A DNA stretch of 64,000 nucleotides from Promethearchaeota archaeon Loki_b32 (GTDB taxonomy: Archaea; Asgardarchaeota; Lokiarchaeia; Sigyniarchaeales; SOKP01), in the NCBI GenBank assembly GCA_005223125.1, contig NJBH01000004.1:1-64000 (forward strand), in the 5' to 3' direction. Positions within the stretch are counted from its first letter, which is position 1; each line of letters begins with the position of its first letter. The translations under genes were made by a program, and so were the position numbers. The notes beneath the pieces were generated by a model. It was not told the origin of the DNA. It saw only the letters and a list, made by a program, of their open reading frames with translations, and did no database searches. Below, in pieces: positions 3,524-18,935 of this stretch.

Positions 3524-4396
3524 TTATTTTTCCAGTATTCCTCGAATCTTTTTTACTGTCTCTTTAAATGCTTTCGTTGATTTACTTTCAGGATATTTTA
3601 ATACAAAAGGTAAGCCCCTATCACCTTGCTGGCTTACTTCAACTTCAAAAGGTATTTTACCTAATAATTGAATTCCAAAATCCTGAGATGCCTTTTCTAC
3701 ACCACCTGGGGGATACAAATCAATATGTTCTCCGCAGTGTGGACATTCGAAGCCAGACATGTTTTCTATTAAACCAAGTACTTTTCTTTCCATTATCTGA
3801 GACATTTTTATAGTTTTTCGAGCATCCATTAACGCAACTTCTTGAGGTGTCGAAACTACGATAACATTCTCGTCGGGAATAAGTTGTAAAATATCTAAGG
3901 TTTCATCTGATGTTCCTGGTGGTAAATCACATATTAAATAATCTAATTCACCCCATATAGCCTCACCTAAAAACTGTCTTACTGCACTCATTTTCATTGG
4001 ACCCCTCCAAATAACTGGTGAGTCTGAACTTACAATAAGAAATGCCATGCTCATTGCTTTAAGATTTAAGGGTCCAATAACAGGATAAAATCTTTTTTTT
4101 TCAGGATCAACCCTCGGTTTAAGATTTGGGTCGATACCTAACATTTTCAATACATTTGGACCTGTTATATCCACATCTAAGATTCCAACCCTAAGTCCAA
4201 CGCTTACTAAGCTCATAGCAAGGTTTACAGCTACTGTGGTTTTTCCTACTCCACCTTTTCCAGATATAATTACGATTTTATGCTTAATTTTACTCATATT
4301 CTTGTTAATATACTCTGTTAATTTATCCATCTTTTCTTTCTTTCCTTCTTCAACTGTCTTTTTTAAATCAATATCTGGAATTTCTTTTTCTTGAAT
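3524..4396 (-). CDS. Mrp/NBP35 Fe-S carrier ATPase (probable ATT start at 4396; first ATG at 4330)
   Basis: GKGGVGKT, VIWRGPM, DLPPGT, ENMS-CPHC; GAGGT RBS 8 nt upstream of in-frame ATT. Confidence 0.9.
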   Translation of the reverse strand: MQEKEIPDIDLKKTVEEGKKEKMDKLTEYINKNMSKIKHKIVIISGKGGVGKTTVAVNLAMSLVSVGLRVGILDVDITGPNVLKMLGIDPNLKPRVDPEKKRFYPVIGPLNLKAMSMAFLIVSSDSPVIWRGPMKMSAVRQFLGEAIWGELDYLICDLPPGTSDETLDILQLIPDENVIVVSTPQEVALMDARKTIKMSQIMERKVLGLIENMSGFECPHCGEHIDLYPPGGVEKASQDFGIQLLGKIPFEVEVSQQGDRGLPFVLKYPESKSTKAFKETVKKIRGILEK

Positions 4397-4456
4397 ATTC
4401 TTTTACCTCTTAATTATAATTAAATTTATATATTTTAGAATTTTTTATATTCATAA

Positions 4457-4480
4457 TGAATAATTATTCAGAATTATTCA
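4457..4480. promoter_or_regulatory. Palindromic operator TGAATAATTATTCA plus extra half-site, in divergent promoter
   Basis: Perfect 14-bp palindrome at 4457-4470; recurs at 7367, 8017 and 10378. Confidence 0.7.
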
Positions 4481-4522
4481 AAATTTAAAAAAGTTACTAA
4501 AAAAAATATGGTGTAATAAAGA

Positions 4523-4966
4523 TTGAGTATTATTGCAATACCTTCAATGGGAAGTGGAGGATTAAATGATGAGATGAGTCCTCGTTTTGGGAGATGTGCA
4601 AGTTTTACATTCGTTGAAATGGAAAATAACGAGATAAAAGCCGTTAAAACGGTTCCAAATCCTGCAGCAAATGCGATGGGGGGTGCTGGTGTACAAGCAA
4701 CTCAAATAATTGGTAATAATGGTGCTGAAGCTATAATCGTAGGTTTCTTAGGCCCTAATGCTGCTAGTGGACTTAATGCTTTAAATATAAAAATTTTTCA
4801 AGCTCCAAATAAAGCAATTACGATAAAAGAAGTTATGAATCTCTATATAGAAGGTAAACTACAAATGATTACTACCTCAAATGTCGCATCACACTTTGGA
4901 ATGGGAGGCGTTGGTCGAGGCATGGGAGGACGAGGCCAAGGAATGGGAAGAGGTAATCAACCCTAG
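4523..4966 (+). CDS. NifB/NifX (COG1433) family protein with Gly/Arg-rich tail
   Basis: IAIPS…RFGRC…GPNA; GMGGVGRGMGGRG tail. Confidence 0.9.
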   Translation: MSIIAIPSMGSGGLNDEMSPRFGRCASFTFVEMENNEIKAVKTVPNPAANAMGGAGVQATQIIGNNGAEAIIVGFLGPNAASGLNALNIKIFQAPNKAITIKEVMNLYIEGKLQMITTSNVASHFGMGGVGRGMGGRGQGMGRGNQP

Positions 4967-5004
4967 AAGCGCAAAGAGTTAATTAGAAAAGTAGGATATC
5001 TCTT

Positions 5005-5943
5005 ATGAGTAGCAAGAAGTCAAAAGTAATTTGTATTACAGGAGGTAAAGGGGGAACTGGTAAAACTTTATGTGCTGTTAATCTTGCTGTCATGTTCAAA
5101 AATGAAGGAAAGAAAGTTCTTCTTATAGATGGTGATGTAGAGAATCCTAATACATATTTATTATTAAATGGAAGTCTTGAAAATAAAAGAGATGTTCCAT
5201 TTTTCAAACCTAAAATTATTGAAAGTAAATGCTCTAAATGTGGATTATGTGCTCAAAATTGTGCGCCGCATGCTTTATTATACATAACGGATTCATTTCC
5301 CATTCCAATATTAGCCTTATGTTCTGGATGCCAATTATGTTATAAGATTTGTCCGGAAGAGGCAATTGAAACTGATTCAAAAGTAATAGGCTGGACTTAT
5401 TCGACAAAAGTAAACGGGATTTCTCTTTTAATTGGTGAATTGAAACCGGCAGAGGCTCGTTCGGCAGCAATTGTAGAAACGCTCCTCGAAGAACTTGACG
5501 AGATAATAAAAGGTGATCCGGATAGGTTCGATGTAGTCATTCTAGATACCTCTCCAGGGGCGCATTGTGATGTAGAAGCCTTAATCAATAAGGCCGATTT
5601 AGTAATTCCCGTTACAGAGCCAACTAGGTTTGGCAAGTTAGACTTGATCCGGATAATAGAACTAATTGAATTATTGAATAAAGATCATCGAGCTATTGTT
5701 AATAGATCTTCGTTATTGGGCTTCAGAGACGAATTCTTAAAGGATTTAAAAGAAAAGAATATAATGATTCTTGGCGACATTCCTTTAGATGACGACATCG
5801 TGCATTCTTATTGTATAGGCGTGCCTTTAATGGATGGAAATAGTGAAACCGACAAGAATGGAAAGGGGTATAAAGCATTTAAAAGGATATTTGAGAATTT
5901 AATCGAATGGATGGAAACTAAAGAACAAGGTGAGGGGAGCTAA
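5005..5943 (+). CDS. MinD-like P-loop ATPase with inserted 2x[4Fe-4S] domain (COG1149)
   Basis: GGKGGTGKT, DGDVENPN, CSKCGLC/CSGCQLC, VTEPT. Confidence 0.9.
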   Translation: MSSKKSKVICITGGKGGTGKTLCAVNLAVMFKNEGKKVLLIDGDVENPNTYLLLNGSLENKRDVPFFKPKIIESKCSKCGLCAQNCAPHALLYITDSFPIPILALCSGCQLCYKICPEEAIETDSKVIGWTYSTKVNGISLLIGELKPAEARSAAIVETLLEELDEIIKGDPDRFDVVILDTSPGAHCDVEALINKADLVIPVTEPTRFGKLDLIRIIELIELLNKDHRAIVNRSSLLGFRDEFLKDLKEKNIMILGDIPLDDDIVHSYCIGVPLMDGNSETDKNGKGYKAFKRIFENLIEWMETKEQGEGS

Positions 5944-6880
5944 AGTAATAGAGAAAAAGAATGTTGGAATCATTTCGGGGAAAGGTGGAGTAGGTAAAAC
6001 TTCTCTAGTTGCATCCTTGGTAAGCTTAGCCAATAAGGATCCGGATTTAAAAACAATCGTACTTGATTGTGATGTAGACGCTCCTAATCTCTCTTTAATA
6101 CTTCCGGCGATGGCTGAAGATGCAATAAAGAGTCAAGACATTTATGCTACTCTAAAAGCTACATTCCTCGAACAAAAATGTGTTAATTGTAAGAAATGCA
6201 TTGACGAGCATTTTTGTGAGTTTCACGCATTAGGATGGGACGATGATAATCAAGTTCCTGTAGTGGATTATTTAGCGTGTGAGGGATGTGGGGCTTGTAA
6301 GTTTTTATGTCCTGAACATGCCTTTGAAATAGATCCCATTAAAAGCGGAATTATCGTTTCTTACATTTCAGAGATGGGCTCACCGCTAGTTTATGGCAAG
6401 ACCATTTTAGGAAGCTCAACATCCGGAAAGTTAGTCTCGGATGTTAAAGAATTTGTGAAGAACTTAAAAGAATTCGAGGAAAGCAATTTAATATTAATAG
6501 ATGGCCCTCCAGGAATTGGCTGCCCCGTAATTGCGACCGTTTCAGGCTTGGATTATGTCATTACCATAACCGAACCTACTCCTTCTGGATTACACGACCT
6601 AATACGGGCGATAGAAGTCGTGCAGCAATTTAAAATTCCGTTTGGGATAATAATTAATAAATCTGATTTGAAAAGCCCTTTTCAAGATAAATTCAAGGAT
6701 TACATCGACAATACGGGGTTTAACATCTTAGGAAAAATTCCATTTGATTTATCGATCCCGAAAGCAATGTCTTTTGCTGAAACAGTTGTAGATTTTGCTC
6801 CAGATTCTAAAGCAAGTTTATCTATTAAAAAGATTTATCAAAATTTAAAAGAAATATTATGGAATAATACTTTAATTTGA
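5930..6880 (+). CDS. Second MinD-like P-loop ATPase with 4Fe-4S domain (COG1149)
   Basis: SGKGGVGKT, DCDVDAPN, CEGCGAC, DGPPGIGCP, TEPTPSG. Confidence 0.9.
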   Translation: MRGAKVIEKKNVGIISGKGGVGKTSLVASLVSLANKDPDLKTIVLDCDVDAPNLSLILPAMAEDAIKSQDIYATLKATFLEQKCVNCKKCIDEHFCEFHALGWDDDNQVPVVDYLACEGCGACKFLCPEHAFEIDPIKSGIIVSYISEMGSPLVYGKTILGSSTSGKLVSDVKEFVKNLKEFEESNLILIDGPPGIGCPVIATVSGLDYVITITEPTPSGLHDLIRAIEVVQQFKIPFGIIINKSDLKSPFQDKFKDYIDNTGFNILGKIPFDLSIPKAMSFAETVVDFAPDSKASLSIKKIYQNLKEILWNNTLI

Positions 6881-6903
6881 TCTTTTTATTATAAAATAAG
6901 AAT

Positions 6904-7323
6904 CTAAATGTATTCTCTAATAAGATGATATACGTTATTGGAATTACATTTAATACAATTAACCTTTCTCTCCCTAGATGCATCCGGATCTTCCCACTCG
7001 TGATTACAGTTATTACATCCATATCCCTTAAAGCTTAATTTAGTTTCGAAATTGCCACCATATATTAAAATTTTCTTTCCCTCAATTAAGGCTAAGGTAT
7101 TTTTTTGATGAGCACTTTCAAGAATTCTTGAAAATGTAGGTTGACTTACTCCCATTCTTTCAGCAGATTCTTTCTGATTCAAGCCTAAATAATGTTTTAA
7201 TCTCATAGCTTCATATTCAGCAACAGTTATTATTATCGAATCTTCGGTTTTAGGTGAATCTCCAGGGAAATAGATATTTTTAGGTGTTAGATTAACCCAT
7301 CGTCGATGTCTGTTTCTTCCTAT
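6904..7323 (-). CDS. DUF134 HTH protein with C-terminal Zn ribbon (probable ATA start at 7323)
   Basis: Frame extends upstream of the ORF call as IGRNRHRRWV…EYEAMRLK; GVSQPTFSRIL HTH; CNNC…CIKC; GGTGA RBS. Confidence 0.85.
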   Translation of the reverse strand: MGRNRHRRWVNLTPKNIYFPGDSPKTEDSIIITVAEYEAMRLKHYLGLNQKESAERMGVSQPTFSRILESAHQKNTLALIEGKKILIYGGNFETKLSFKGYGCNNCNHEWEDPDASRERKVNCIKCNSNNVYHLIREYI

Positions 7324-7366
7324 ATCGAATCACCAAAAGTATCATTAAAATTATAAAAAAACACTT

Positions 7367-7382
7367 ATTAATAATTATTCAT
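7367..7382. promoter_or_regulatory. Operator copy ATTAATAATTATTCAT upstream of DUF134 gene
   Basis: One mismatch to ATGAATAATTATTCAT. Confidence 0.6.
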
Positions 7383-7387
7383 AAATT

Positions 7388-7912
7388 TTAAACATTTTTT
7401 AGAATAGGGCGGAAACAAGTTAAAATAGTATTCATTTCCTTATCTACTTCTTCTAAGTACCATAATCCCCCGCCTTCTTCTTCATTACCATACCCCATAT
7501 CGACGTATTCTTTATCATCTAGACATCTATCATCAGCCATATCGGTTAGTTCATTGATTAATTTAAATTTTCTTATAAGATCCTTCTTTTCTTCACTATT
7601 AATGAATTCCTTAAAATCTTGTACTTTATTGTTAATTGCTTGGCGTTCTTCCACCCAGGTTTTATATTCATCTTCTGGAACCTCGTCTTTAAAAAATGAG
7701 AAAAGTATCTCATCCAATCCAAGGGAAGTCTTTCCTCTTACTTTCTCATTAAATACTTCATCTAAGTTAGTTTCTATTTCTATTAATACTTGGATGTAAC
7801 TGTCTACTAAAGAGAAGTCTTGGAATTCTGGATTGTCGTCATTCCTTATGGCGAATTTTAATAATTTTAAGAGAGTCGGATATTTTTTACTAATTCTATC
7901 TGATGGAAGCAT
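7388..7912 (-). CDS. Hypothetical acidic protein
   Basis: 174-aa ORF with protein-like composition; no family recognised. Confidence 0.6.
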   Translation of the reverse strand: MLPSDRISKKYPTLLKLLKFAIRNDDNPEFQDFSLVDSYIQVLIEIETNLDEVFNEKVRGKTSLGLDEILFSFFKDEVPEDEYKTWVEERQAINNKVQDFKEFINSEEKKDLIRKFKLINELTDMADDRCLDDKEYVDMGYGNEEEGGGLWYLEEVDKEMNTILTCFRPILKNV

Positions 7913-8016
7913 TATGTTTATAATTCAAAATTATTATTTCTATTATTGAAATGAAAACTTAAGTTTATAAAATTTCAGACTCCCTTACTTTGTAACAATT
8001 AAGTTTTTATGTTATT

Positions 8017-8032
8017 ATGAATAATTATTCAT
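8017..8032. promoter_or_regulatory. Perfect 16-bp operator ATGAATAATTATTCAT
   Basis: Exact palindrome upstream of nifX-like gene at 8098. Confidence 0.7.
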
Positions 8033-8097
8033 TAAATTTAAATTTTATAATTTCCTATAATATTATAATGTAATATAAAATAAAAATCATTAACAAG

Positions 8098-8511
8098 TTG
8101 AAAAGAATGAAAATAGCTATTAGTACAGAATCAGGAAATGTTTGCGCTCACTTTGGCCGAGCGCCAGAGTTTACTTTTGTTACAATTGAAGATAATCAAG
8201 TATTAAAAAAAGAAGTACTTCAAAACCCTGGACATTCTGTAGGGAGTATACCTCAGTTTGTAAATCAACAAGGAGCGAAATACATGATTGCGGGAGGTAT
8301 GGGACACAGAGCTGAAGCTTTTTTTAGTCAATATGGAATTGAAGTAATTGTAGGAATTTCCGGTAAAATTGATGATGTTATCAAAAAGATTCTAGACGGA
8401 ACTTTAGAAAGAGGAGAAAGTCTTTGCACTCCAGGTGGTGGTAAGGGATACGGTGTCGAAAAAATTCATACTGAAGCTGATGATAATCACGAGCATCATC
8501 ATCATGAATAA
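8098..8511 (+). CDS. NifB/NifX family protein with His-rich tail
   Basis: KIAIST…HFGRAP…GGMG; HEHHHHE C-terminus. Confidence 0.9.
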   Translation: MKRMKIAISTESGNVCAHFGRAPEFTFVTIEDNQVLKKEVLQNPGHSVGSIPQFVNQQGAKYMIAGGMGHRAEAFFSQYGIEVIVGISGKIDDVIKKILDGTLERGESLCTPGGGKGYGVEKIHTEADDNHEHHHHE

Positions 8512-8604
8512 AATTTGATTTATATTATAGATCTTTCCTAAAAATTAGAGTAGATTCATCCTTTCAGTTTTACAATGCTAAAACTTTATTTCCAGGCTAG
8601 CAAT

Positions 8605-8814
8605 CTAATAATGAAGATCTTCTTTTATATCATCATTAGGTAGCATATTATCTGGGTGATATTCTCCATTTTCTTCCATTTGATATCTAATACAATTTTT
8701 ATTCCCAATTAAACAATAATTCTCAACCCATTTTGTGTCAAGTTTATCATGATCAATAAAATACTTAATTGGGCAAGTGTAATACCATTTATATGTTTTA
8801 TTTTTAGGTTTCAA
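8605..8814 (-). CDS. Small Cys-containing hypothetical protein
   Basis: KWYYTCP…YC…CIRYQMEENGEYHPDNMLP pattern looks conserved. Confidence 0.6.
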   Translation of the reverse strand: MKPKNKTYKWYYTCPIKYFIDHDKLDTKWVENYCLIGNKNCIRYQMEENGEYHPDNMLPNDDIKEDLHY

Positions 8815-8875
8815 TTTTACTAACAGTCCTTAACCTAGTTTGATTATAGTTATGATAAATAGAATAATAATTTTG

Positions 8876-9315
8876 TTAACTAGTATTGCTATTGATAATT
8901 TCAGGTAATATTGCATTATTCGGACAGTTTTTAAAGTATTTTAAGCATTTGAAACATTTTGGAAGATTCTCTTTATGAAATTCGATAAATTCGTCCCCTG
9001 TTTTTTCATCTTGTTTAAGTCTAAAGATGTTTTGAAAATAAAATTTCTCTTCTAAGCAGAGTTTACATAAATTGCATTTTTCTTGATCAATGCAAAAACC
9101 CATCAATTTTACTTCATTAATCGAGATAACCTCAATAGCTCCATGCTCACATACATCCACACATTTTAAGCATCCTTGACACTTATCGTAATCTACATAT
9201 CGAAGTGAATTTTTAAAAAAAATAGCTTTATTTGGACAGCTATACATGCATCGCTGACATAATACGCATAAATTTGGATTTATATATATATAGGAAATAG
9301 TTTCTCCTTTTCCAT
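8876..9315 (-). pseudogene. Polyferredoxin-like 4Fe-4S protein, frameshifted in a (TA)n tract
   Basis: ATG at 9315 (MEKEKLFP) is out of frame with NPNLCVLCQRCMYSCP by one extra TA at 9281-9292; two C-terminal Cys positions read Tyr. Confidence 0.7.
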
Positions 9316-9383
9316 GATAATTTCTGGTGATATTAATGAATTTAAAGAATAAATTTCAAGTTAAAAAAAAATAATAATAAAAT

Positions 9384-9884
9384 TTATTTTCTAATCTGTA
9401 CTTTAGGTTGAATTGAAGAAGCTCCGCCAAAATTAGTAATTACAGGGCAATGGGTAAATATTTTATCCATTAATTCATTAATTTTTTCTTCTGGAGCATC
9501 AGCTTTAATTCTGATAACAGGTTCTAATTTATCATAACCAGCTAATTTTGAGTCATCAATTCCAAAAATAGCTCCTAAATTGATATGACCACGCGAAAAA
9601 ACTTTCATTTCTTCAATTTTAATGTCCATAATTTTAGCCCAGAATCTTGTAACCGCAATAATACAAGCTCCAATAGAGGATAAGATAACTAATAATGGTG
9701 ATGGTCCTTCATTTGTTCCATCTAAACCAAGAGGTGCGTCAATTATTAATTCAAATGGTTTTGCTCCCATGGTACATTTAACTTGCATACCATCAGATAA
9801 CATTTCACATTCAACGTTAAAATTTTTCTCTCCAGCATTCCAGTCTGCCTTAATGGCATCATAAGTTTCTTTAAAACTTGGCAT
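9384..9884 (-). CDS. OsmC family protein
   Basis: DAP..LDG…GPSP…GAC and HCPV motifs. Confidence 0.88.
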   Translation of the reverse strand: MPSFKETYDAIKADWNAGEKNFNVECEMLSDGMQVKCTMGAKPFELIIDAPLGLDGTNEGPSPLLVILSSIGACIIAVTRFWAKIMDIKIEEMKVFSRGHINLGAIFGIDDSKLAGYDKLEPVIRIKADAPEEKINELMDKIFTHCPVITNFGGASSIQPKVQIRK

Positions 9885-9925
9885 TTATACTCTCCTATTT
9901 TGGTAAATTTTAATTCTTGCTTATT

Positions 9926-10321
9926 TTAATGAGCGTGAGCATGTTCTGAGTTACTAGCACAGCTAGCATTGTTTAAAGATGTTAATTGGCCGTCTAATAA
10001 CATTCTTACATTTTTTTCAATGCTTCCATTGATACCTTGAAATAAATTTATGTTAACTTGTTGAAAACCCATAAATGGACGCATACCAATACCAGTTAAA
10101 ATCATATCACTAACATTTCTTTGTTTCATGTTTAGAACAGGTTCCATACAACCTGAATGACCACTATTAGGTAATGCAAAAACTTGCTTGAATTTATTAC
10201 CATCATAAATTTCAATTCCAATGAAATAGTTACAATGTCCAAAATGAGGTGATATATTATCAGATATTTCAGGTCCATCAGAGGGAATTCCAATTATTCG
10301 ATTCATATGTCTTACACTCAT
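9926..10321 (-). CDS. NifB/NifX family protein
   Basis: IGIPS…HFGHCNYF…GIGMRP; HAHAH tail. Confidence 0.88.
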   Translation of the reverse strand: MSVRHMNRIIGIPSDGPEISDNISPHFGHCNYFIGIEIYDGNKFKQVFALPNSGHSGCMEPVLNMKQRNVSDMILTGIGMRPFMGFQQVNINLFQGINGSIEKNVRMLLDGQLTSLNNASCASNSEHAHAH

Positions 10322-10642: not shown

Positions 10643-11947
10643 TTAATGAGTTGCACAGGATATACAAGGGTCAAATGCCCTAATAATCATCTGAATTTTC
10701 TTTTTAACTAAATTTATATCTCCTGTTCTTTCAAATAATTCTTGAGCATATTTTGTAATCATATCGTTAATAAGTGAGAGATTAAACTCAGTAGCAATGA
10801 ATAGATTTATTCGATCAACGTAATTACTTTTATTAAGGTGATAATGATGTATTAAAACCCCTCTAGGGGCCTCAATAACACCTATTCCATCCAAGTTTTT
10901 TATTGAATTCAGAGAGGGAAGTTTTTCTCTTATATTTAAAGATGGATTATCTAAAATTTGTAATCCTTGATAAGATTCAATATACATTTCTAATAATCTT
11001 ATAAAATTAGTAAATAATATATTGTTTTTCCATGATTTATTAAAGTAGTCAAGATAAGTGGGAATTTCATCAATTCCATAATTCTCAACAATATTAAAGC
11101 GTGAAAAAGGGCCAACAATCACATTTTTTTCATTTTCGAAATAAAAATCAATTCCACGTAAATTAATCTCTTTTCCAAAATATGTAGAATAATTTTGTTT
11201 TTCAAATTCTATAAAGTTTTTATTGTTTTCTTTAAATCTTAAAGAACCAGAATATCGATCATAATTTCCATAATTAGTTAGAGCAAGAGAAATAAATTTT
11301 GGAAGATCAAATTCTTTTGGAGGAGTCTGATTTGCAAATAATTGAATAAATTTTTCTATAATCCATTCTAAAATAACTAAAGCTTTTTGAAAATATTTTC
11401 GAGCTAATGTAATACTTTTTCGAGAAGGAGAATAAATAACACCTCCAGGAACAAGTGAAATCAAATGAACAGATCTACCACCAAATAATTCATTTATTTC
11501 ATTTCCAACTTTAATTAAATCATATAAACTAGTTGTTAATTGAGGATAATATTTGATTAATTCATAAGGAGAAAAAGTCTTTTGGCTAAGATTAAAAATT
11601 GTTAAAAGATCTGGTAGAGTCTGGAAAAAAAAATTCATAGAATGAGATTTAATTAATTCAGCACTCATTAAAAGGCGTCTTAAAAGAATATTATGTTCTG
11701 AAACTTCGATATTATAAATATCTTCTATTGTTTTACAACTAGCGATTGTTTGAGAAGCATAACATAATCCGCATATTCGAGATATAATTTTTGGAATATC
11801 AAATAGATTTTTACCGATTAAGAAATTTTCAAATCCTCGATATATCTCAAATTCTAAATTTACTGATAAAACTTCATCATTCTGAAGTAAGATTCTTACT
11901 TCTCCGTGACCCTCAACACGTTTACAAACATCAACAACTTTTAACAA
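10643..11947 (-). CDS. mvhA: [NiFe]-hydrogenase large subunit, group 3 (MvhA-like), with no C-terminal extension
   Basis: RVEGHG, RICGLCYASQ (L1), EAPRG, DPCISCATH immediately followed by TAA. Confidence 0.9.
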   Translation of the reverse strand: MLKVVDVCKRVEGHGEVRILLQNDEVLSVNLEFEIYRGFENFLIGKNLFDIPKIISRICGLCYASQTIASCKTIEDIYNIEVSEHNILLRRLLMSAELIKSHSMNFFFQTLPDLLTIFNLSQKTFSPYELIKYYPQLTTSLYDLIKVGNEINELFGGRSVHLISLVPGGVIYSPSRKSITLARKYFQKALVILEWIIEKFIQLFANQTPPKEFDLPKFISLALTNYGNYDRYSGSLRFKENNKNFIEFEKQNYSTYFGKEINLRGIDFYFENEKNVIVGPFSRFNIVENYGIDEIPTYLDYFNKSWKNNILFTNFIRLLEMYIESYQGLQILDNPSLNIREKLPSLNSIKNLDGIGVIEAPRGVLIHHYHLNKSNYVDRINLFIATEFNLSLINDMITKYAQELFERTGDINLVKKKIQMIIRAFDPCISCATH

Positions 11948-11952
11948 TCTTT

Positions 11953-12711
11953 TTACCTTTTCATTTTTGGTTTTGAGAATCGATAAAAAATACCAGTATA
12001 ATCCTTTAATTCTTGAGATAATTCTATCAAGCTCAAAAAATTTATAACATTAGAAGTAAAATCTTTTGATACAGGACCCATACATCCCTCACAAGGAAGC
12101 CCCATTTTTATACATTTATGTTCACATCCATCACGAGTTATTGGTCCTAAACATAAAATACCTTTTTTTAAAAAACATTCAGAATTTTCTTCGTTTAGAC
12201 TAATTTCTTCTGGATTAGGATTGATTTTGGTGATATTTATTTGAAAATTAATTTCCATTTTTTCCCATATTGGACAATTGGCGCACATATTTTTTTCGGA
12301 TAAGGTTATATCTTTATTCTCAACCAACCTAATTACACTGTTTCCAAAAAGCTTAGAGGGCGGGGGACAGCCAGGAATAATACCATCAACTTCAATATAA
12401 TTAGAGAGTGGTTCTGCTATTTTTGAATTTGAAAGGCTAAGAATTCCTCCAAAACAAGCGCAGGTTCCTAAAGCAAATACTTTTTTTGCGTGTCTTCGAA
12501 CTTTTCTAAGGAGTATTATTTGTGTTTCTTCAGAAACACAGCCTTCTACTAATGCTATTTCACATTCTTTAATATCTTTTGCATCTGAAATAAATGGAAA
12601 ATAAATTATTCTTGTTCTTTCAAGAAATTGTGGAAAAATGTCTAAAGACATAAGAGTTGATATACACCCAGTACATGAAGTTAGAGAAATTAATATAAAT
12701 CTAGGCTTCAA
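11953..12711 (-). CDS. mvhG: [NiFe]-hydrogenase small subunit (MvhG-like); probable TTG start at 12711
   Basis: SCTGC, GTCACFGG, PGCPP, CLGPITRDGC…CEGCMGP; GGAGG RBS before TTG. Confidence 0.88.
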   Translation of the reverse strand: MKPRFILISLTSCTGCISTLMSLDIFPQFLERTRIIYFPFISDAKDIKECEIALVEGCVSEETQIILLRKVRRHAKKVFALGTCACFGGILSLSNSKIAEPLSNYIEVDGIIPGCPPPSKLFGNSVIRLVENKDITLSEKNMCANCPIWEKMEINFQINITKINPNPEEISLNEENSECFLKKGILCLGPITRDGCEHKCIKMGLPCEGCMGPVSKDFTSNVINFLSLIELSQELKDYTGIFYRFSKPKMKR

Positions 12712-15250
12712 ATTTAATTTCCTCCAATAGTTGATTATAGAATTTATTAGAAATTTCAGCAAATTTATTACCCTCAACAGCATTCAAATGTTCAAGAATT
12801 ATTCGATCTTTATATTTAGGTGATATAATATTCTTTAATAATCTGATTTTATTTTCTACTTTTTTAATTCCATCAATATATCGACAAGCATCTTGTCTAC
12901 AACCAATTATCATTACTCCGTCGAAACCGAGTTCAAATGATTTAATAATAAAGCTAGTGTCAATGCGCCCTGTACAAGGCACCCTGACAATAAAAATATT
13001 TGGATTATAAGAGATCTTCTTGAGTCCGGCATTATCAGCGGCAGCATATCCACAAGAGGCACAGCAGAAGGCAATAATTTTTGGATGTGTTCTGAATTTC
13101 GAAAAAATTTCAATTGTTGCTAGAATCTTTTCAGAAGTGTCTATGTTTAAATCTATTGCATTAGTAGGACAAACACTAGCACAAGTACCGCAACCCTTAC
13201 ATTTGAATTTATCTATACTAACTTTATCTGATTCTATTATAATAGCATTATAAGGACAAATCTTTAAGCACAGACCACATAAGCCACATCTGTTTTCATC
13301 AATCTCTATTCCTGTAAACTCTGCTATCAAATAATTCTTAGAAAGTAATGCAATGATTTTTAATGCAATATTATTAGTTGTTGATATTGTAGAATTATAA
13401 TCTAATGGGCCAAAGATTGTCCCAACTCCATAAATTCCAGAAGCTAATGTTTCTTCACTCATAAATCCATTGTCATCTAATGTAAAATCCATAAATTTTC
13501 GAAGATTTTTTAGATCTTTATTTGGGACATATTTTAGACTTAATACAATCAAATCACTTGGAAATTCAATATTATCAGCAATAATATAATTTTGATCTTT
13601 ATTAGATTCAATAGTAATTTTGTTGGCATATATAAATCTGGGATTAGTTGATCTTAACAAAATCTCATCCTTATCCTTTAATCTACTTAAATCATAAAAA
13701 ACATTGACTTCACAATCAAGATTTCTTATTTTAATATCCTCAATATATTTTTCTGCCAAATTTTCAGAGTAATCAGCAAGATATTTCGATGGGCCAACTT
13801 CTTGGATAATGGAAATCGTATTTATGGGTATTTTATCTGATAATCTTAAAAGCTTTCCTTCAGTTAAACCGTCAGAAGATAAAATCCGCTCAAATTCAGG
13901 TGAAGTTATTATATTTTTTTTGGGATTATAATGATAATCCTCTAAATCTCCGGAAAAATCGGATCCAATAGCAATAACTTTAGTACCAACCTTAATCTCA
14001 ATCCTTTCTTCTTTTTGAGTTAAATCTATTGCTTTATTCACGCACGCACGTTCACAAATTCTACAATTAAGGCAATTCTTTAAATCTTCTTCATCAATTA
14101 AAGGAATATAAGGATAGGAATGCATAAATGGAATATATATGATTTTTCGATTAATTAGACCAAATTCATATTGATTTGGTTTTTCTATACTACAAACTTC
14201 TATACATTGTTTACATCCTGTACATTTTTTCATATCGACATAACGAGGTTTTTTAACCATATTAATTGTAAAATTTCCTACTTCTCCTGATACATTTTCA
14301 ACTTCAGTATTAGTAAAAAAACTTATATTTTTTTCATTCGCTAACTCACTTATTAATTCTGAAATGAAACATATTGAACAATCACCCATATTATGGATTC
14401 TATGCCATCTGGCTACCTTACCTCCCAATGTTGGTGATTTATCAATGAGATATACTTTTATTCCAGCTCGCGCTAAATTTAAAGCAAGGGTTATACCTGC
14501 AATTCCCCCACCTAAAATTGCACAACTCTTTTCTACCTCAACTCTCTTCACTTTTACTTTTTTTTGAAGATTTACTCGTTCAACAGCGGCTTCAATTAAT
14601 AATTTAGTCTTTTCTAATGAAAGTGAAGGATCTATTTGATTCATTTTAAATTGATGTACCCAGCAACATTGTTCTCTAATGTTAGCTATTTCTATATTTG
14701 TACGATCTATAATATCCTCAAAAATTCGTTCAAAAAGAAGTTGGTGTGTTTTTGGAGAACAAGCTGCTATTACTATTTTATTCAAAAAATTGTCTTTAAC
14801 CCAATTACATATTTTTTCAAAATTCTTTTGTTGACAGAGATTTTCAAAAATCTTTACCGAAACTACTTTTCTTAACTTATTCATATAATTTCCAAGTGCA
14901 GTTATATCAATTACACTTGAAATTTCTGTATTACAATTACAAATAATTACTCCAATCCGGCTTATTTCACTTCCCTTATAGTCTAAATACTCATCAATAT
15001 CTTCTCCCGATAAAATTCTTTTGTTAAGATTAAGTATTTTAAGTACGCGTTTGCCTTCTTCTGTAAGAAAATACGATTTTTTGTCTTTCCTTATTAATGA
15101 GTCGATCTTTTTAAGATGAAAATTTAGTTGTCCAGTTGTTTCTAGACCAAGTTTTTCCATTAAATCAGTATAATGAAGATAACCCTCTCTTTCTAAAAGA
15201 AGTAAAATTTTTCTCCTAAATGGATGAGACAATATTGAATATATGTCCAT
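12701..15250 (-). CDS. Fusion protein: ArsR-like winged HTH + HdrA-like flavo-Fe-S + MvhD domain
   Basis: LSHPFRRKILLLL…TGQLNFHLKK…YFLTEEG wHTH; CNC/AACSP/NIREQC HdrA N-domain; GGGIAG; ferredoxin motifs; C-terminal AFCCASCGYAAAD…RVPCTGRID MvhD. Confidence 0.88.
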   Translation of the reverse strand: MDIYSILSHPFRRKILLLLEREGYLHYTDLMEKLGLETTGQLNFHLKKIDSLIRKDKKSYFLTEEGKRVLKILNLNKRILSGEDIDEYLDYKGSEISRIGVIICNCNTEISSVIDITALGNYMNKLRKVVSVKIFENLCQQKNFEKICNWVKDNFLNKIVIAACSPKTHQLLFERIFEDIIDRTNIEIANIREQCCWVHQFKMNQIDPSLSLEKTKLLIEAAVERVNLQKKVKVKRVEVEKSCAILGGGIAGITLALNLARAGIKVYLIDKSPTLGGKVARWHRIHNMGDCSICFISELISELANEKNISFFTNTEVENVSGEVGNFTINMVKKPRYVDMKKCTGCKQCIEVCSIEKPNQYEFGLINRKIIYIPFMHSYPYIPLIDEEDLKNCLNCRICERACVNKAIDLTQKEERIEIKVGTKVIAIGSDFSGDLEDYHYNPKKNIITSPEFERILSSDGLTEGKLLRLSDKIPINTISIIQEVGPSKYLADYSENLAEKYIEDIKIRNLDCEVNVFYDLSRLKDKDEILLRSTNPRFIYANKITIESNKDQNYIIADNIEFPSDLIVLSLKYVPNKDLKNLRKFMDFTLDDNGFMSEETLASGIYGVGTIFGPLDYNSTISTTNNIALKIIALLSKNYLIAEFTGIEIDENRCGLCGLCLKICPYNAIIIESDKVSIDKFKCKGCGTCASVCPTNAIDLNIDTSEKILATIEIFSKFRTHPKIIAFCCASCGYAAADNAGLKKISYNPNIFIVRVPCTGRIDTSFIIKSFELGFDGVMIIGCRQDACRYIDGIKKVENKIRLLKNIISPKYKDRIILEHLNAVEGNKFAEISNKFYNQLLEEIKFEA

Positions 15251-15312: not shown

Positions 15313-16458
15313 TTATTCTTCATTTACTACTGAAGTCATTGATGACGATTTCCATACTATCAATTTATTCTTCATATTTTTTTCTGTTCGTTTTATTTTT
15401 GATTGAGAGAATTGGGTAATTTTTTCCATCATTTCCTTTTTGTCATTTACATCCAATTTTAAACATTTAATTACACCTGCGTTTAGTGCTTTATTGACTA
15501 TATCTTTTCCTTTTTTTGTACGAGTGATAACAGTTGTAAATTTATCAGGGGAGCCTAACCCTCCAAAGGAAATATCTGCATAAATATTAGTAAAATCTTT
15601 GCAAACCGCGCAAGCTTGACGCACATAATCATTTAATCTCTTAAAAGGTATATGAATAGTACTATTATCTTTTAAATTAACAATTAAATCTTCCTTAATG
15701 TTTATTCTTTTAATATTTTTGAATTTTAGTTTAAAATCTTTTTCAAATTTCTCAACCTTTTTATTATCAAAAAAAAAATTCTCATAACAAAATAATCCTA
15801 AACAAAATTCTATATTCTCAGATGGAATGATACCTAAGTTTTGCATACATCTAATTGTGTAAATTTGACAAGGTGTTCCTATTAATGCCAATTTCTTAAA
15901 TTTGTACTGCTTTAATTTGGGTAATGAACTTGTATATGTATGAAATTTCTGTACAGTTTCTAATTGGGGAGATGTATCTAACTTGACACCTGAAGCGCTA
16001 ATTAAATCTTCTCTACTTTTAGCTATTATACCCTCTCTAGAGAAAGGTGATTTTGTTTTTGCAACAATTGCTCCATCAATCACTTTTTTATCTATTAAAT
16101 AATTAATTATTGAGTTTACAACCCCGCCGTCTGTACCAAAATTTAAGAATTCACTATCTATAGCTTGGCAAGAGTAAATTGCTTCTACAAACCCTAAAGG
16201 CATCGATAAAAAATCTGAAAAAGTATAAGATTTATTGAGATCCTCGTCTAAAACATGTGTTTGTGGACAAATGAAATAACAAATCCCACACTCAAGGCAT
16301 TTTTCCTTATTTAAATATTCTGGAGGAGAATTAGGTTTTTTAAATCCAATTACATCATTTTCTATTGAATTACAAAAACTTACACAACCACCACACTCTT
16401 GACAAATACCAGGTTCATGGACTTCTTCAATTAAATCCTTAAAAGTTTTTATACTCAT
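15313..16458 (-). CDS. FrhB/FdhB-family F420-binding flavoprotein with N-terminal 2x[4Fe-4S]
   Basis: CQECGGC, CLECGIC, DGGVV, GTPCQI, GLFCYENF, CAVCKDF…ADISFG. Confidence 0.88.
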   Translation of the reverse strand: MSIKTFKDLIEEVHEPGICQECGGCVSFCNSIENDVIGFKKPNSPPEYLNKEKCLECGICYFICPQTHVLDEDLNKSYTFSDFLSMPLGFVEAIYSCQAIDSEFLNFGTDGGVVNSIINYLIDKKVIDGAIVAKTKSPFSREGIIAKSREDLISASGVKLDTSPQLETVQKFHTYTSSLPKLKQYKFKKLALIGTPCQIYTIRCMQNLGIIPSENIEFCLGLFCYENFFFDNKKVEKFEKDFKLKFKNIKRINIKEDLIVNLKDNSTIHIPFKRLNDYVRQACAVCKDFTNIYADISFGGLGSPDKFTTVITRTKKGKDIVNKALNAGVIKCLKLDVNDKKEMMEKITQFSQSKIKRTEKNMKNKLIVWKSSSMTSVVNEE

Positions 16459-16532: not shown

Positions 16533-16550
16533 TGATAAATATAATTGTCA
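16533..16550. promoter_or_regulatory. Operator TGATAA-N6-TTGTCA
   Basis: Imperfect palindrome; same motif at 16702, 25886 and 25993. Confidence 0.6.
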
Positions 16551-16701: not shown

Positions 16702-16783
16702 TGATAAAAAATTTTGTCAAAATAACTATAATTTATCTTATCAGATTTTTTAAATTTCTCTTAGCTTATTATTTAATCGGAAA
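16702..16783 (+). promoter_or_regulatory. Operator TGATAA-N6-TTGTCA + TATA (TTTAAATT, 16749) promoter of Sec-hdrA
   Basis: Aligns without gaps to 25993-26073. Confidence 0.65.
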
Positions 16784-16898: not shown

Positions 16899-18935
16899 AT
16901 GTCTGAAAATCAGACCAATGTTAGGATTGGAGTATATATCTGTAGATGAGGAATTAATATTAGTGCTAGCATCGATTGTGATCTTATTAGAGATTATGTT
17001 GAGGCACTCCAAGATATTATTGTTGCTAGAGTAAATGATTTTACTTGTAGTGATCCGGGACAAAATATCATCAAAAACGATATTTTAGATTTAGATTTAA
17101 ATCGTGTAGTTGTTGCAGCTTGTACACCAAAAATTCATGAATCCACATACCGAACAGTTTTAACTGAAGCAGGATTAAACCCATATTACTTTCAGATGGT
17201 TAATCTTCGCGAGCATTGCTCATTCATTCACTCGGGTGATAAGAGAAGTACTACTGAAAAAGCTATAAGGTTAGTGCAAGCAGGGATAAATCGTGCGAGA
17301 CAATTAGAAATTATACCTCATAAAAAAATTTCAGTGGAAAAATCTGTATTAATTATTGGTGCTGGAATTGCAGGGATGAATGCTGCATTAGATTTAGCAA
17401 ATCAAGGAATAATTGTATATTTGGTCGAAATAGAAGCCACAATTGGTGGAAAAATGGCACAATTAGATCGAATTTATCCTACAGACGATTGTGCTATATG
17501 AGTTCTAGCACCTATTATGGTTAGTGCTTCAAAACACCCAAATATAACATTATTTACTTATAGTGATATTATTGGATTTAGTGGTATCCCTGGTAATTAT
17601 AATGTTAAAATATGTAAAAATCCCCGGTATATTGATGAAAAAAAGTGTACTGGTTGTGGATTATGTACGACAAAATGTCCAATAACAGTACCTAACGAAT
17701 TCAACAGATGTATTGGCGAACGGAACGCAATTTATATACCCTTTTCCCAAGCGGTACCTAAAATTGCGTTAATTGAAAAGAGTATCTGCATAGAATGTAA
17801 AAATTGTCAAAAAATTTGTCCAGCAGAGGCTATTGACTTTGAACAAGTCTCAGAATATGTTGATTTAAAAGTTGGTGCAGTAATTATCGCTACAGGATGG
17901 GATGAATATCCAATTATGAAAAATAACGAATATAAATATGGTATTTATCCTGATGTTATTACTCAAATAGAGTTAGAACGTATATTGAGTCCAGTTGGGC
18001 CAACAGGGGGTCACTTATATAGAATTTCTGATGGAAAACCCCCAAAAACATTAGCTATGATTCAATGTGTTGGTTCAAGATCCTTAAAAGGTAATCCCTA
18101 TTGCTCTGGAGTATGTTGTAATGTTGCACTTAAAAACGCTCAGTTGTTAAAACAAGAATATCCTGACATGGACATTGCTATTTTTTATATAGATATGCGA
18201 ACGTGGGATAAAGGAAATGAAGAATATTATAGAAAAGCGAGAGAAGCGGGTATAATGATGATTCGGGGAAAAGTTGGAGATATCCGAGTAGATCCTGATA
18301 CACTAAAAATAAAAGTTACAGCTGATTCAACTTTAACAAATGATTTCATAACAATGAATACCGATTTAGTTGTATTATCAACAGGCATGGTTCCTTCTAA
18401 AAATACAGCACAAATTGTTGAGACTTTAGGTTTAAGTAAAGATATAAATGGGTTTTTAACTGAAGTTCATGGGTGTCTAAAACCTCAAGAGACAAATAAT
18501 TTTGGCATATATATATGTGGCTGTGCTGCTGGACCTAAAAATATTCCTTATTCAGTATCGACAGCTTTAGCTGCAGCAAGTAAAGTATCTACTTTACTTT
18601 CTAAAGATACAATTACTCAAGAATTAATCATTGCTGAAGTAAATGAAACTCTATGTATTGGTTGCCATAGATGTGAAAAACTCTGCAATTATAAGGCAAT
18701 AAAAGTTAATGGAGAGAATATAGCTGAAGTAGACGACTTAAAATGTAAAGGTTGCGGAGTTTGTGTATCATCATGCCCCGCTCGAGCAATTGATCTTAAA
18801 TATTATAGAGATAAACAAATTATTGAAGAGATAAAAGGGATTTGTAGTACTGAACTTGAATATAAGGAAGAATATATTGAATCTATTGAACTTATTTGGA
18901 AAAAGATTGAAGCATTAGCTCCTCATCAAACATAA
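16899..18935 (+). CDS. hdrA: Heterodisulfide reductase subunit A, 678 aa, with two in-frame UGA (probable selenocysteines U17, U201)
   Basis: AGGTGG RBS, ATG 16899; one frame through TGA 16947 (IGVYICR-U-GINI, paralogues CHCG/CQCG) and TGA 17499 (PTDDCAI-U-VLAP, paralogues PTLDCSLCILAP); joins ORFs 17196 and 17517. Confidence 0.85.

Follow-up and report, generated by a model that had tools for sequence, protein, structure and literature searches.

A tail-less group 3 [NiFe] hydrogenase with glutamine in its L1 motif and a putative DNA-binding flavoprotein partner in Lokiarchaeia

Does the [NiFe] hydrogenase large subunit encoded at positions 10643..11947 (minus strand) of the window, that is, of the whole 64,000-nucleotide stretch of Promethearchaeota archaeon Loki_b32 DNA that was analysed, sense hydrogen or turn it over? 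The initial annotation noticed two traits of regulatory hydrogenases in it and concluded that a low-activity sensor had evolved convergently within group 3. The open reading frame has a TTG start and encodes 434 amino acids that exceed the gathering score of PF00374 (85.2 bits versus a cut-off of 25.8). Both motifs, as they had been quoted, can be read directly from the translation: the L1 motif RICGLCYASQ (R57-Q66, 11750..11779, minus strand, the codon of Q66 being 11750-11752) has Gln at the usual position of His, and the L2 motif DPCISCATH runs straight into the stop codon (together 10643..10672, minus strand; stop codon 10643-10645), leaving no cleavable tail. The two pairs of Ni-binding cysteines (C59, C62, C428 and C431), E12-G-H14 and R362 are all in place and do not vary within the clade; the same is true of the second-sphere Glu, Arg and Asp, and the proton-gate glutamate (RVEGH) and the arginine of APRG are as intact as the four cysteines. 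Among solved structures, the closest matches are the NiFe-HydABCSL large subunit 7t2r_D (2.8e-53), MvhA 5odc_F (2.6e-48) and HoxH 5xf9_D. As expected of standard enzymes, 7t2r_D, the MvhA chains (5odc_F, 9sw2_F) and HoxH 5xf9_D all have His at the position equivalent to Gln66, and the C-terminal extension attributed to typical MvhA is there too, the MvhA chains and 7t2r_D extending about 25 residues beyond the final His. In a set of 120 homologues with identity down to 53%, Gln is found in 117 of the 118 readable L1 motifs and the protein ends at His without a tail in all 119 with a readable C-terminus, which disposes of the suggestion that the stop might be a sequencing error; since both traits are fixed in the clade, neither the Gln nor the loss of the tail is an error of sequencing. 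Absence of the tail makes the endopeptidase step unneeded, and, as had been stated, the window (contig C36) contains no maturation protease, the only HycI-family match of the genome being on contig C2.

For comparison with a hydrogen sensor and a membrane-bound enzyme at the level of single residues, HoxC (L100:17976-19433) and HoxG (L100:1236-3092) were read from the megaplasmid pHG1 and aligned with the cassette subunits and canonical subunits. Q66 of the window's protein (P0001) aligns with Q67 of HoxC and H82 of HoxG; L61 aligns with I62 of HoxC and V77 of HoxG, the canonical group 3 subunits also having Ile here; and Q109 (F108-Q109, 11621..11626, minus strand) aligns with F110 of HoxC and L125 of HoxG, a position that is Leu in canonical group 3. 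I62 and F110 of HoxC are residues that we take to form the gate of the gas channel, and Q109 at the position of F110 is, on this alignment, a third sensor-like trait. P0001 ends at H434 and HoxC at H485, whereas HoxG has a 15-residue tail after H603. The motifs RVEGH and APRG of P0001 are the standard ones, compared to RVEGD and AARG in HoxC and RIEGH and APRG in HoxG. The features for which HoxC had been cited, Gln and no extension, are borne out, but the L1 sequence quoted for it, RICGICSVSQ, is wrong: pHG1 reads RVCGICSVSQ.

The two traits differ in rarity. The L1 His is reported to be conserved in all [NiFe] hydrogenases except hydrogen sensors, and the Gln of HoxC is apparently uninvolved in sensing (PMC5665086); the naturally tail-less groups are listed as 2b, 2d, 4c, 4e and 4g, group 3 not being among them (PMC7294309). 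In a search of about 15 billion proteins by one representative per 50%-identity cluster, the L1 Gln was limited to the cluster line of the query and to four clusters next to it, and 17 unrelated His-type clusters likewise stop exactly at His; of eight of these 17 that were scanned with models, six fit best to sulfhydrogenase (3b-like) and two to VhuA (3c-like). In group 3, loss of the tail is common and the L1 Gln is rare. The initial annotation had named as evidence against itself that both traits be common in catalytic group 3 homologues lacking any regulator; this is borne out in part, for tail loss, given the 17 His-type clusters, and not for the Gln. Three other group 3 large subunits of 583-588 amino acids (P0213, P0227, P0252) are also tail-less (DPCITCSVH-stop) and have about 170 extra N-terminal residues.

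When 90 large subunits were placed in a tree (IQ-TREE quick search, LG+G4) with other group 3 sequences as the outgroup, the cassette-linked subunits fell in a single clade (SH-aLRT 99) separate from all other group 3 representatives. The first branch in this clade consists of family f28 and P0133, in which L1 has His, the tail is 8-10 residues long and L2 lacks the final His; the second branch consists of f21 and P0128, which have the L1 His and a tail of 7-8 residues. The remainder is a Gln clade of 26 rows (support 99), within which f6 and f4/G279 have tails of 5-11 residues, f5 and f1 are tail-less, and P0124 and P0120 have regained His. On this tree, His is reconstructed as ancestral, Gln as gained once and reverted twice, and the tail as first shortened and then lost. 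The residue at the position of Q109 is Gln in the Gln clade, Phe in f21 and Met in f28. Because the Gln arose within a group 3 clade whose basal members have His, it is independent of the Gln of group 2b. The convergence that had been proposed therefore stands at the residue level (Q66/Q67, the His end, and Q109 at F110), having been reached stepwise in an Asgard-only group 3 clade. In the basal L092-L094 (f28) and P0133, which end in DPCISCSS-V… or DPCIPCAA-L, the L2 His itself has been replaced. All matches of the genome search with at least 47% identity are within one class, and for this reason the source names in NCBI (Hod-, Hermod-, Thor-, Odin- and Heimdallarchaeota) were not used; proteins 70-80% identical to the query are spread over five phylum labels, and the submitters' labels look unreliable.

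The large subunit is the last member of a three-gene cassette. The gene before it encodes an MvhG-like small subunit (11953..12783, minus strand; PF01058; 1.9e-33 to MvhG 5odc_E) in which every cluster-binding Cys motif aligns with MvhG 5odc_E, so that the full relay of three Fe-S clusters is present; its listed start overlaps the upstream gene, and the true start is probably further downstream. The upstream gene (12701..15250, minus strand) encodes an 849-residue fusion, defined by Pfam and alignments, of a winged helix-turn-helix (wHTH) domain (DUF7347), an HdrA N-terminal domain, an FAD domain, inserted and C-terminal ferredoxin domains, and MvhD. The fusion retains the FAD motif, both ferredoxin domains and MvhD, but by comparison with the window's selenocysteine-containing HdrA and the family alignment it is missing the central HdrA cluster motif CxGSRD..CSxxCC, the four Cys of which are kept in f28 and lost in f21 and the Gln clade. 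No HdrB or HdrC is encoded within the cassette; other Hdr genes are elsewhere nearby in the window. Wherever the flanking sequence is long enough in f1, f4, f6, f21 and f28, the genes follow the order wHTH-HdrA-MvhD, small subunit, large subunit, and alignment of the fusion across these families starts at residue 1; of the f5 loci, L099 shows the same order to the contig end and L098 has no fusion beside the small subunit. The fusion (63-85%) is more conserved than the large subunit (42-77%), and the wHTH partner is already present with the His-type, tailed basal members. The first gene of the operon here encodes an FrhB-like Fe-S/flavin subunit (15313..16458, minus strand; PF04432, PF04422), which is found upstream of the cassette only in the window, L006 and G199 and is accessory rather than core; the NifX, OsmC and ferredoxin genes downstream are equally variable neighbours. 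These belong to an island (3524-10321), shared beside the cassette only by L011, of three NifX-like (Nitro_FeMo-Co) small proteins, two with His-rich C-termini (9926-10321, 8098-8511), three Mrp/NUBPL-type P-loop ATPases (two with ferredoxin inserts), OsmC, a ferredoxin and a DUF134 helix-turn-helix protein.

The wHTH domain is ArsR-like (PF24038, 41.9 bits versus a cut-off of 27.6), with a predicted recognition helix, TGQLNFHLKKL, that hardly changes between families; likeness to the wHTH structures of MntR and ArsR is weak (E ~0.02). An operator-like palindrome, TGATAAATATAATTGTCA (16533..16550), is located 75 bp upstream of the first start codon of the operon, with a TATA-like sequence, TTTATATA, directly upstream of it, and a second palindrome, TGATAAAAAATTTTGTCA (16702..16719), is in the same divergent intergenic region. 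The pattern TGAYAA-N6-TTRTCA has these two exact matches in the window versus 0.07 expected, both inside the 440 bp between the operon and the divergently transcribed Sec-hdrA. This neighbour (17196-18935, plus strand) has an in-frame TGA (17499-17501; …DDCAI-U…) that, if read through, gives a 579-residue selenoprotein, and the palindrome region is common to it and the cassette operon. In 269 kb of related loci the palindrome has 11 sites, of which 10 are in cassette promoters: eight precede the fusion gene by no more than 400 bp, and the other two precede the FrhB-like gene that leads the operon in L006. Such promoter sites occur in f1, f6 and f21, and in G199 the palindrome is at the same 75-bp position; it was not found in the cassette promoters of f4 and f28, both of which have the wHTH. 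Genome-wide there is no enrichment, with seven sites versus nine for a reversed control, and a hydrogen regulon was rejected on that count. The one other AT-spacer site, C18:102380, is taken as a chance match, being in or beside unrelated genes. The pattern of sites fits local autoregulation of the predicted operon and not a hydrogen regulon.

What else a genome has for metabolizing hydrogen bears on the question. The source assembly (4.13 Mb, 95.5% complete) contains one further [NiFe] large subunit, on contig C41, which is a split VhuA/VhuU-type [NiFeSe] enzyme, and HypD is on the same contig; neither a group 4 nor an [FeFe] hydrogenase was found in this genome. At the locus of the second enzyme (L001, G000:C41:14367-17603), L1 is RICGICPIPHH, VhuA ends before L2, and a small ORF about 60 nt downstream of VhuA carries D-C-U-LSCAAH and a tail of about 21 residues; the small subunit is unusually long (437 amino acids), and an HdrC-like gene is next. 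In five genomes of three genera (G199, G264, G162, G163 and G239; 92-99% complete) the Gln-type ORF is the only match to PF00374, and no group 4 or [FeFe] hydrogenase was found in them. By a hand tally, about 21 of the 135 genomes of the family carry only the Gln-type hydrogenase, eight of them at least 92% complete. Group 4 hydrogenases are found in 12 of the 135 and [FeFe] hydrogenases in three, and these do not overlap with the Gln-type-only genomes except for a sub-threshold, pseudogene-like group 4 match in G164. HypD is kept in about 13 of the 21, where the Gln-type subunit is its only possible client; it was not found in G199 (99% complete), G264 (95%) or G239 (92%), where gaps in the assemblies or genuine loss may be the reason. 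Overall, 15% of the family genomes are without HypD, a share consistent with assembly gaps. A Hyp-independent hydrogenase, suggested by the absence of HypD from three of five sole-hydrogenase genomes, was rejected, as most such genomes family-wide keep HypD. A homologue of the HycI-family protease (191-212 amino acids, with an N-terminal extension) is kept in four of the five genomes that have only the tail-less enzyme (G199, G264, G162, G163), where it may have another role; the copy of the source genome is L004:1306-1944. The cassette is missing from about a quarter of the genomes of the window's genus and is therefore dispensable. MK-D1, a hydrogen-producing culture, has a sole hydrogenase (PMC7015854). 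The closed genomes G135 and G138 have no match to the large subunit at E <= 1e-20; the cultured Asgard strains appear to be without the cassette, so that physiology is not transferable from them.

The reading that we prefer, and to which we give an even chance of being right, is that of a protease-independent catalytic hydrogenase with a flavoprotein partner that autoregulates its own operon through the wHTH domain. The large subunit would be the catalytic part of an Asgard-specific cytosolic group 3 [NiFe] hydrogenase with a fixed three-gene cassette. Hydrogen would be turned over at the NiFe site, and electrons would pass through three Fe-S clusters to the 2Fe-2S cluster of MvhD and on to the FAD and ferredoxin domains of the HdrA-like part, and in some genomes onward to the FrhB-like module, the co-transcription of which in the window's genus points to metabolic electron flow. 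HdrBC would not be used, because the cluster that normally leads there has been lost. The wHTH of the fusion would bind the TGAYAA-N6-TTRTCA palindrome in the promoter of its own operon, so that the redox state or the assembly of the complex would govern how far the cassette and the divergent Sec-hdrA are expressed, in the manner of a 'trigger enzyme' such as BirA or PutA. The Gln and the loss of the tail would have arisen in this lineage as adjustments to the active site and to maturation, and would not be the basis of sensing. Several facts count against this reading: loss of the cluster that feeds HdrBC would be as natural in a dead end for signalling as in an enzyme whose electrons have been re-routed; outside this clade, hydrogen sensors are the only proteins reported to have Gln at this position (PMC5665086); HypD was not found in the near-complete G199, G239 and G264; and the cassette is dispensable.

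The first rival, a reading in line with the inference made in the initial annotation, is a dedicated hydrogen sensor-regulator, in which slow turnover reduces the HdrA-like flavoprotein and so switches binding of the wHTH to the operator; in archaea, a single component would then do the work of HoxBC-HoxJ-HoxA, and the Gln and tail loss would be sensing adaptations. We consider it unlikely, because about 20 genomes have no other detectable hydrogenase that the Gln-type protein could regulate. The two traits from which a low-activity sensor had been deduced do not sustain it, as tail loss is found in 17 His-type clusters and the Gln of HoxC is reportedly unneeded for sensing (PMC5665086). The same wHTH partner accompanies the His-type, tailed basal members, the Gln has twice become His again, the palindrome is essentially confined to the cassette's own promoter, EGH and APRG are kept where HoxC has EGD and AARG, and in the window's genus an FrhB-like substrate module is co-transcribed. 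What the sensor has on its side is the correspondence of Q66 to Q67 of HoxC, together with the tail-less end and the non-Leu gate position; conservation of the wHTH and the candidate operator; loss of the HdrBC-directed cluster; a large subunit (42-77%) less conserved than the HdrA fusion (63-85%); and the patchy distribution of a dispensable cassette. Three features favour a signalling role: a pocket of the sensor type, loss of the cluster that would face HdrBC, and conservation of the wHTH together with its candidate operator.

An ordinary metabolic hydrogenase, in which the wHTH serves structure or dimerisation and the palindrome is bound by some other transcription factor, would agree with the frequent use of wHTH folds for protein contacts, with the marginal likeness (E ~0.02) to solved DNA-binding wHTH domains, and with the f4 and f28 promoters, which lack the palindrome though the wHTH is present. 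It is nonetheless improbable in our estimate: the families hardly differ in the predicted recognition helix, and the palindrome and the cassette promoter co-occur in f1, f6 and f21 and almost nowhere else, as autoregulation predicts. Very improbable is a hydrogenase-like scaffold, with a redox or metal-binding function and no NiFe(CN)2CO site. None of the four metal-binding Cys varies, nor do the second-sphere Glu, Arg and Asp, and HypD is kept in most Gln-type-only genomes; the failure to find it in G199 (99% complete), G264 (95%) and G239 (92%), where the Gln-type protein is the sole large subunit, is the argument for a scaffold, set against the 15% of family genomes overall from which HypD is missing, a fraction that fits assembly gaps.

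A broader claim can be put forward tentatively, as a possibility that we find appreciable but not probable: the cassette could be the first hydrogen-responsive transcription switch in archaea and the first group 3 hydrogenase with a signalling output, in which oxidation of hydrogen at the Gln-type NiFe site determines the redox state of the fused HdrA-like flavoprotein, which toggles the wHTH on TGAYAA-N6-TTRTCA and thereby controls the cassette and Sec-hdrA, with or without metabolic flux. In HydDB, sensory enzymes are found only in group 2, and the Lokiarchaeum enzyme is filed as bifurcating 3c (PMC5037454); papers on Asgard archaea label such clusters MvhADG-HdrABC (PMC7015854, PMC11291895, 10.1101/2025.02.26.640444). 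A literature search brought up no relevant paper on HdrA with a helix-turn-helix or on sensory hydrogenases of Asgard archaea. The clade breaks, inside group 3, both the L1-His rule (PMC5665086) and the list of tail-less groups (PMC7294309), and since the exception sits in a probably working enzyme, it offers a natural test of what the His-to-Gln replacement and the tail do. In many Lokiarchaeia, the Gln-type hydrogenase is the only one found, and models of Asgard hydrogen metabolism and syntrophy in which the cassette is labelled 'MvhADG-HdrABC' may assign the wrong partners and the wrong coupling. The fused putative DNA-binding domain and the conserved candidate operator make a link from hydrogen or redox state to transcription in archaea testable in vitro.

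Among known systems, the group 2b sensor HoxBC of Cupriavidus necator (R. eutropha) resembles the cassette in the L1 Gln, the non-Leu residue at the position of F110, the end at the L2 His and the link to transcriptional output (PMC5665086; PMC7294309), the cassette's output being a putative wHTH. There is no kinship at the level of groups: the best relatives of the large subunit in PDB and NCBIfam are all group 3, and the Gln, derived inside a group 3 clade, is of independent origin. The Asgard large subunit differs from HoxC in having EGH and APRG instead of EGD and AARG. HoxBC signals through a histidine kinase and a response regulator, whereas the candidate output of the cassette is a wHTH fused to an HdrA-like subunit, no kinase domain having been found among the cassette genes with Pfam. 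A group 2b sensor is expected to co-occur with energy-converting hydrogenases, but the Asgard enzyme is often the sole hydrogenase of its genome, as in about 20 genomes of the family.

The MvhAGD-HdrABC complex of methanogens (group 3c; PDB 5ODC, 9SW2) shares with the cassette an MvhA-like large subunit (2.6e-48), an MvhG-like small subunit (1.9e-33) and, to accept the electrons, an MvhD domain with FAD and ferredoxin domains of the HdrA type. The partners of group 3c, an MvhG-type small subunit and MvhD (here a domain of the 849-residue fusion), are therefore present. The cassette differs in having Gln for His in L1 and Gln for Leu at the gate, in lacking the 25-residue tail (zero residues after His, compared to 24-25 in canonical relatives), in the fusion of HdrA and MvhD behind an N-terminal wHTH, in the loss of the central HdrA cluster, and in the absence of HdrBC; its subunits form a separate clade (SH-aLRT 99), and the VhuA model NF041785 scores 152.8 bits versus a cut-off of 800. 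The top NCBIfam model for the query is ShyA (175 bits). The group 3b sulfhydrogenase-type and other tail-less group 3 clusters are likewise cytosolic with short or absent tails; unlike the cassette, all of them have the L1 His and the gate Leu, and they have other partners and belong to another clade.

Trigger enzymes with fused DNA-binding domains include BirA and PutA, and we know of no hydrogenase that has been described among them. They have no homology to the cassette; the likeness lies in the combination of an enzyme subunit that carries a DNA-binding domain at its N-terminus, in this case a putative one, with a candidate operator in the promoter of its own genes.
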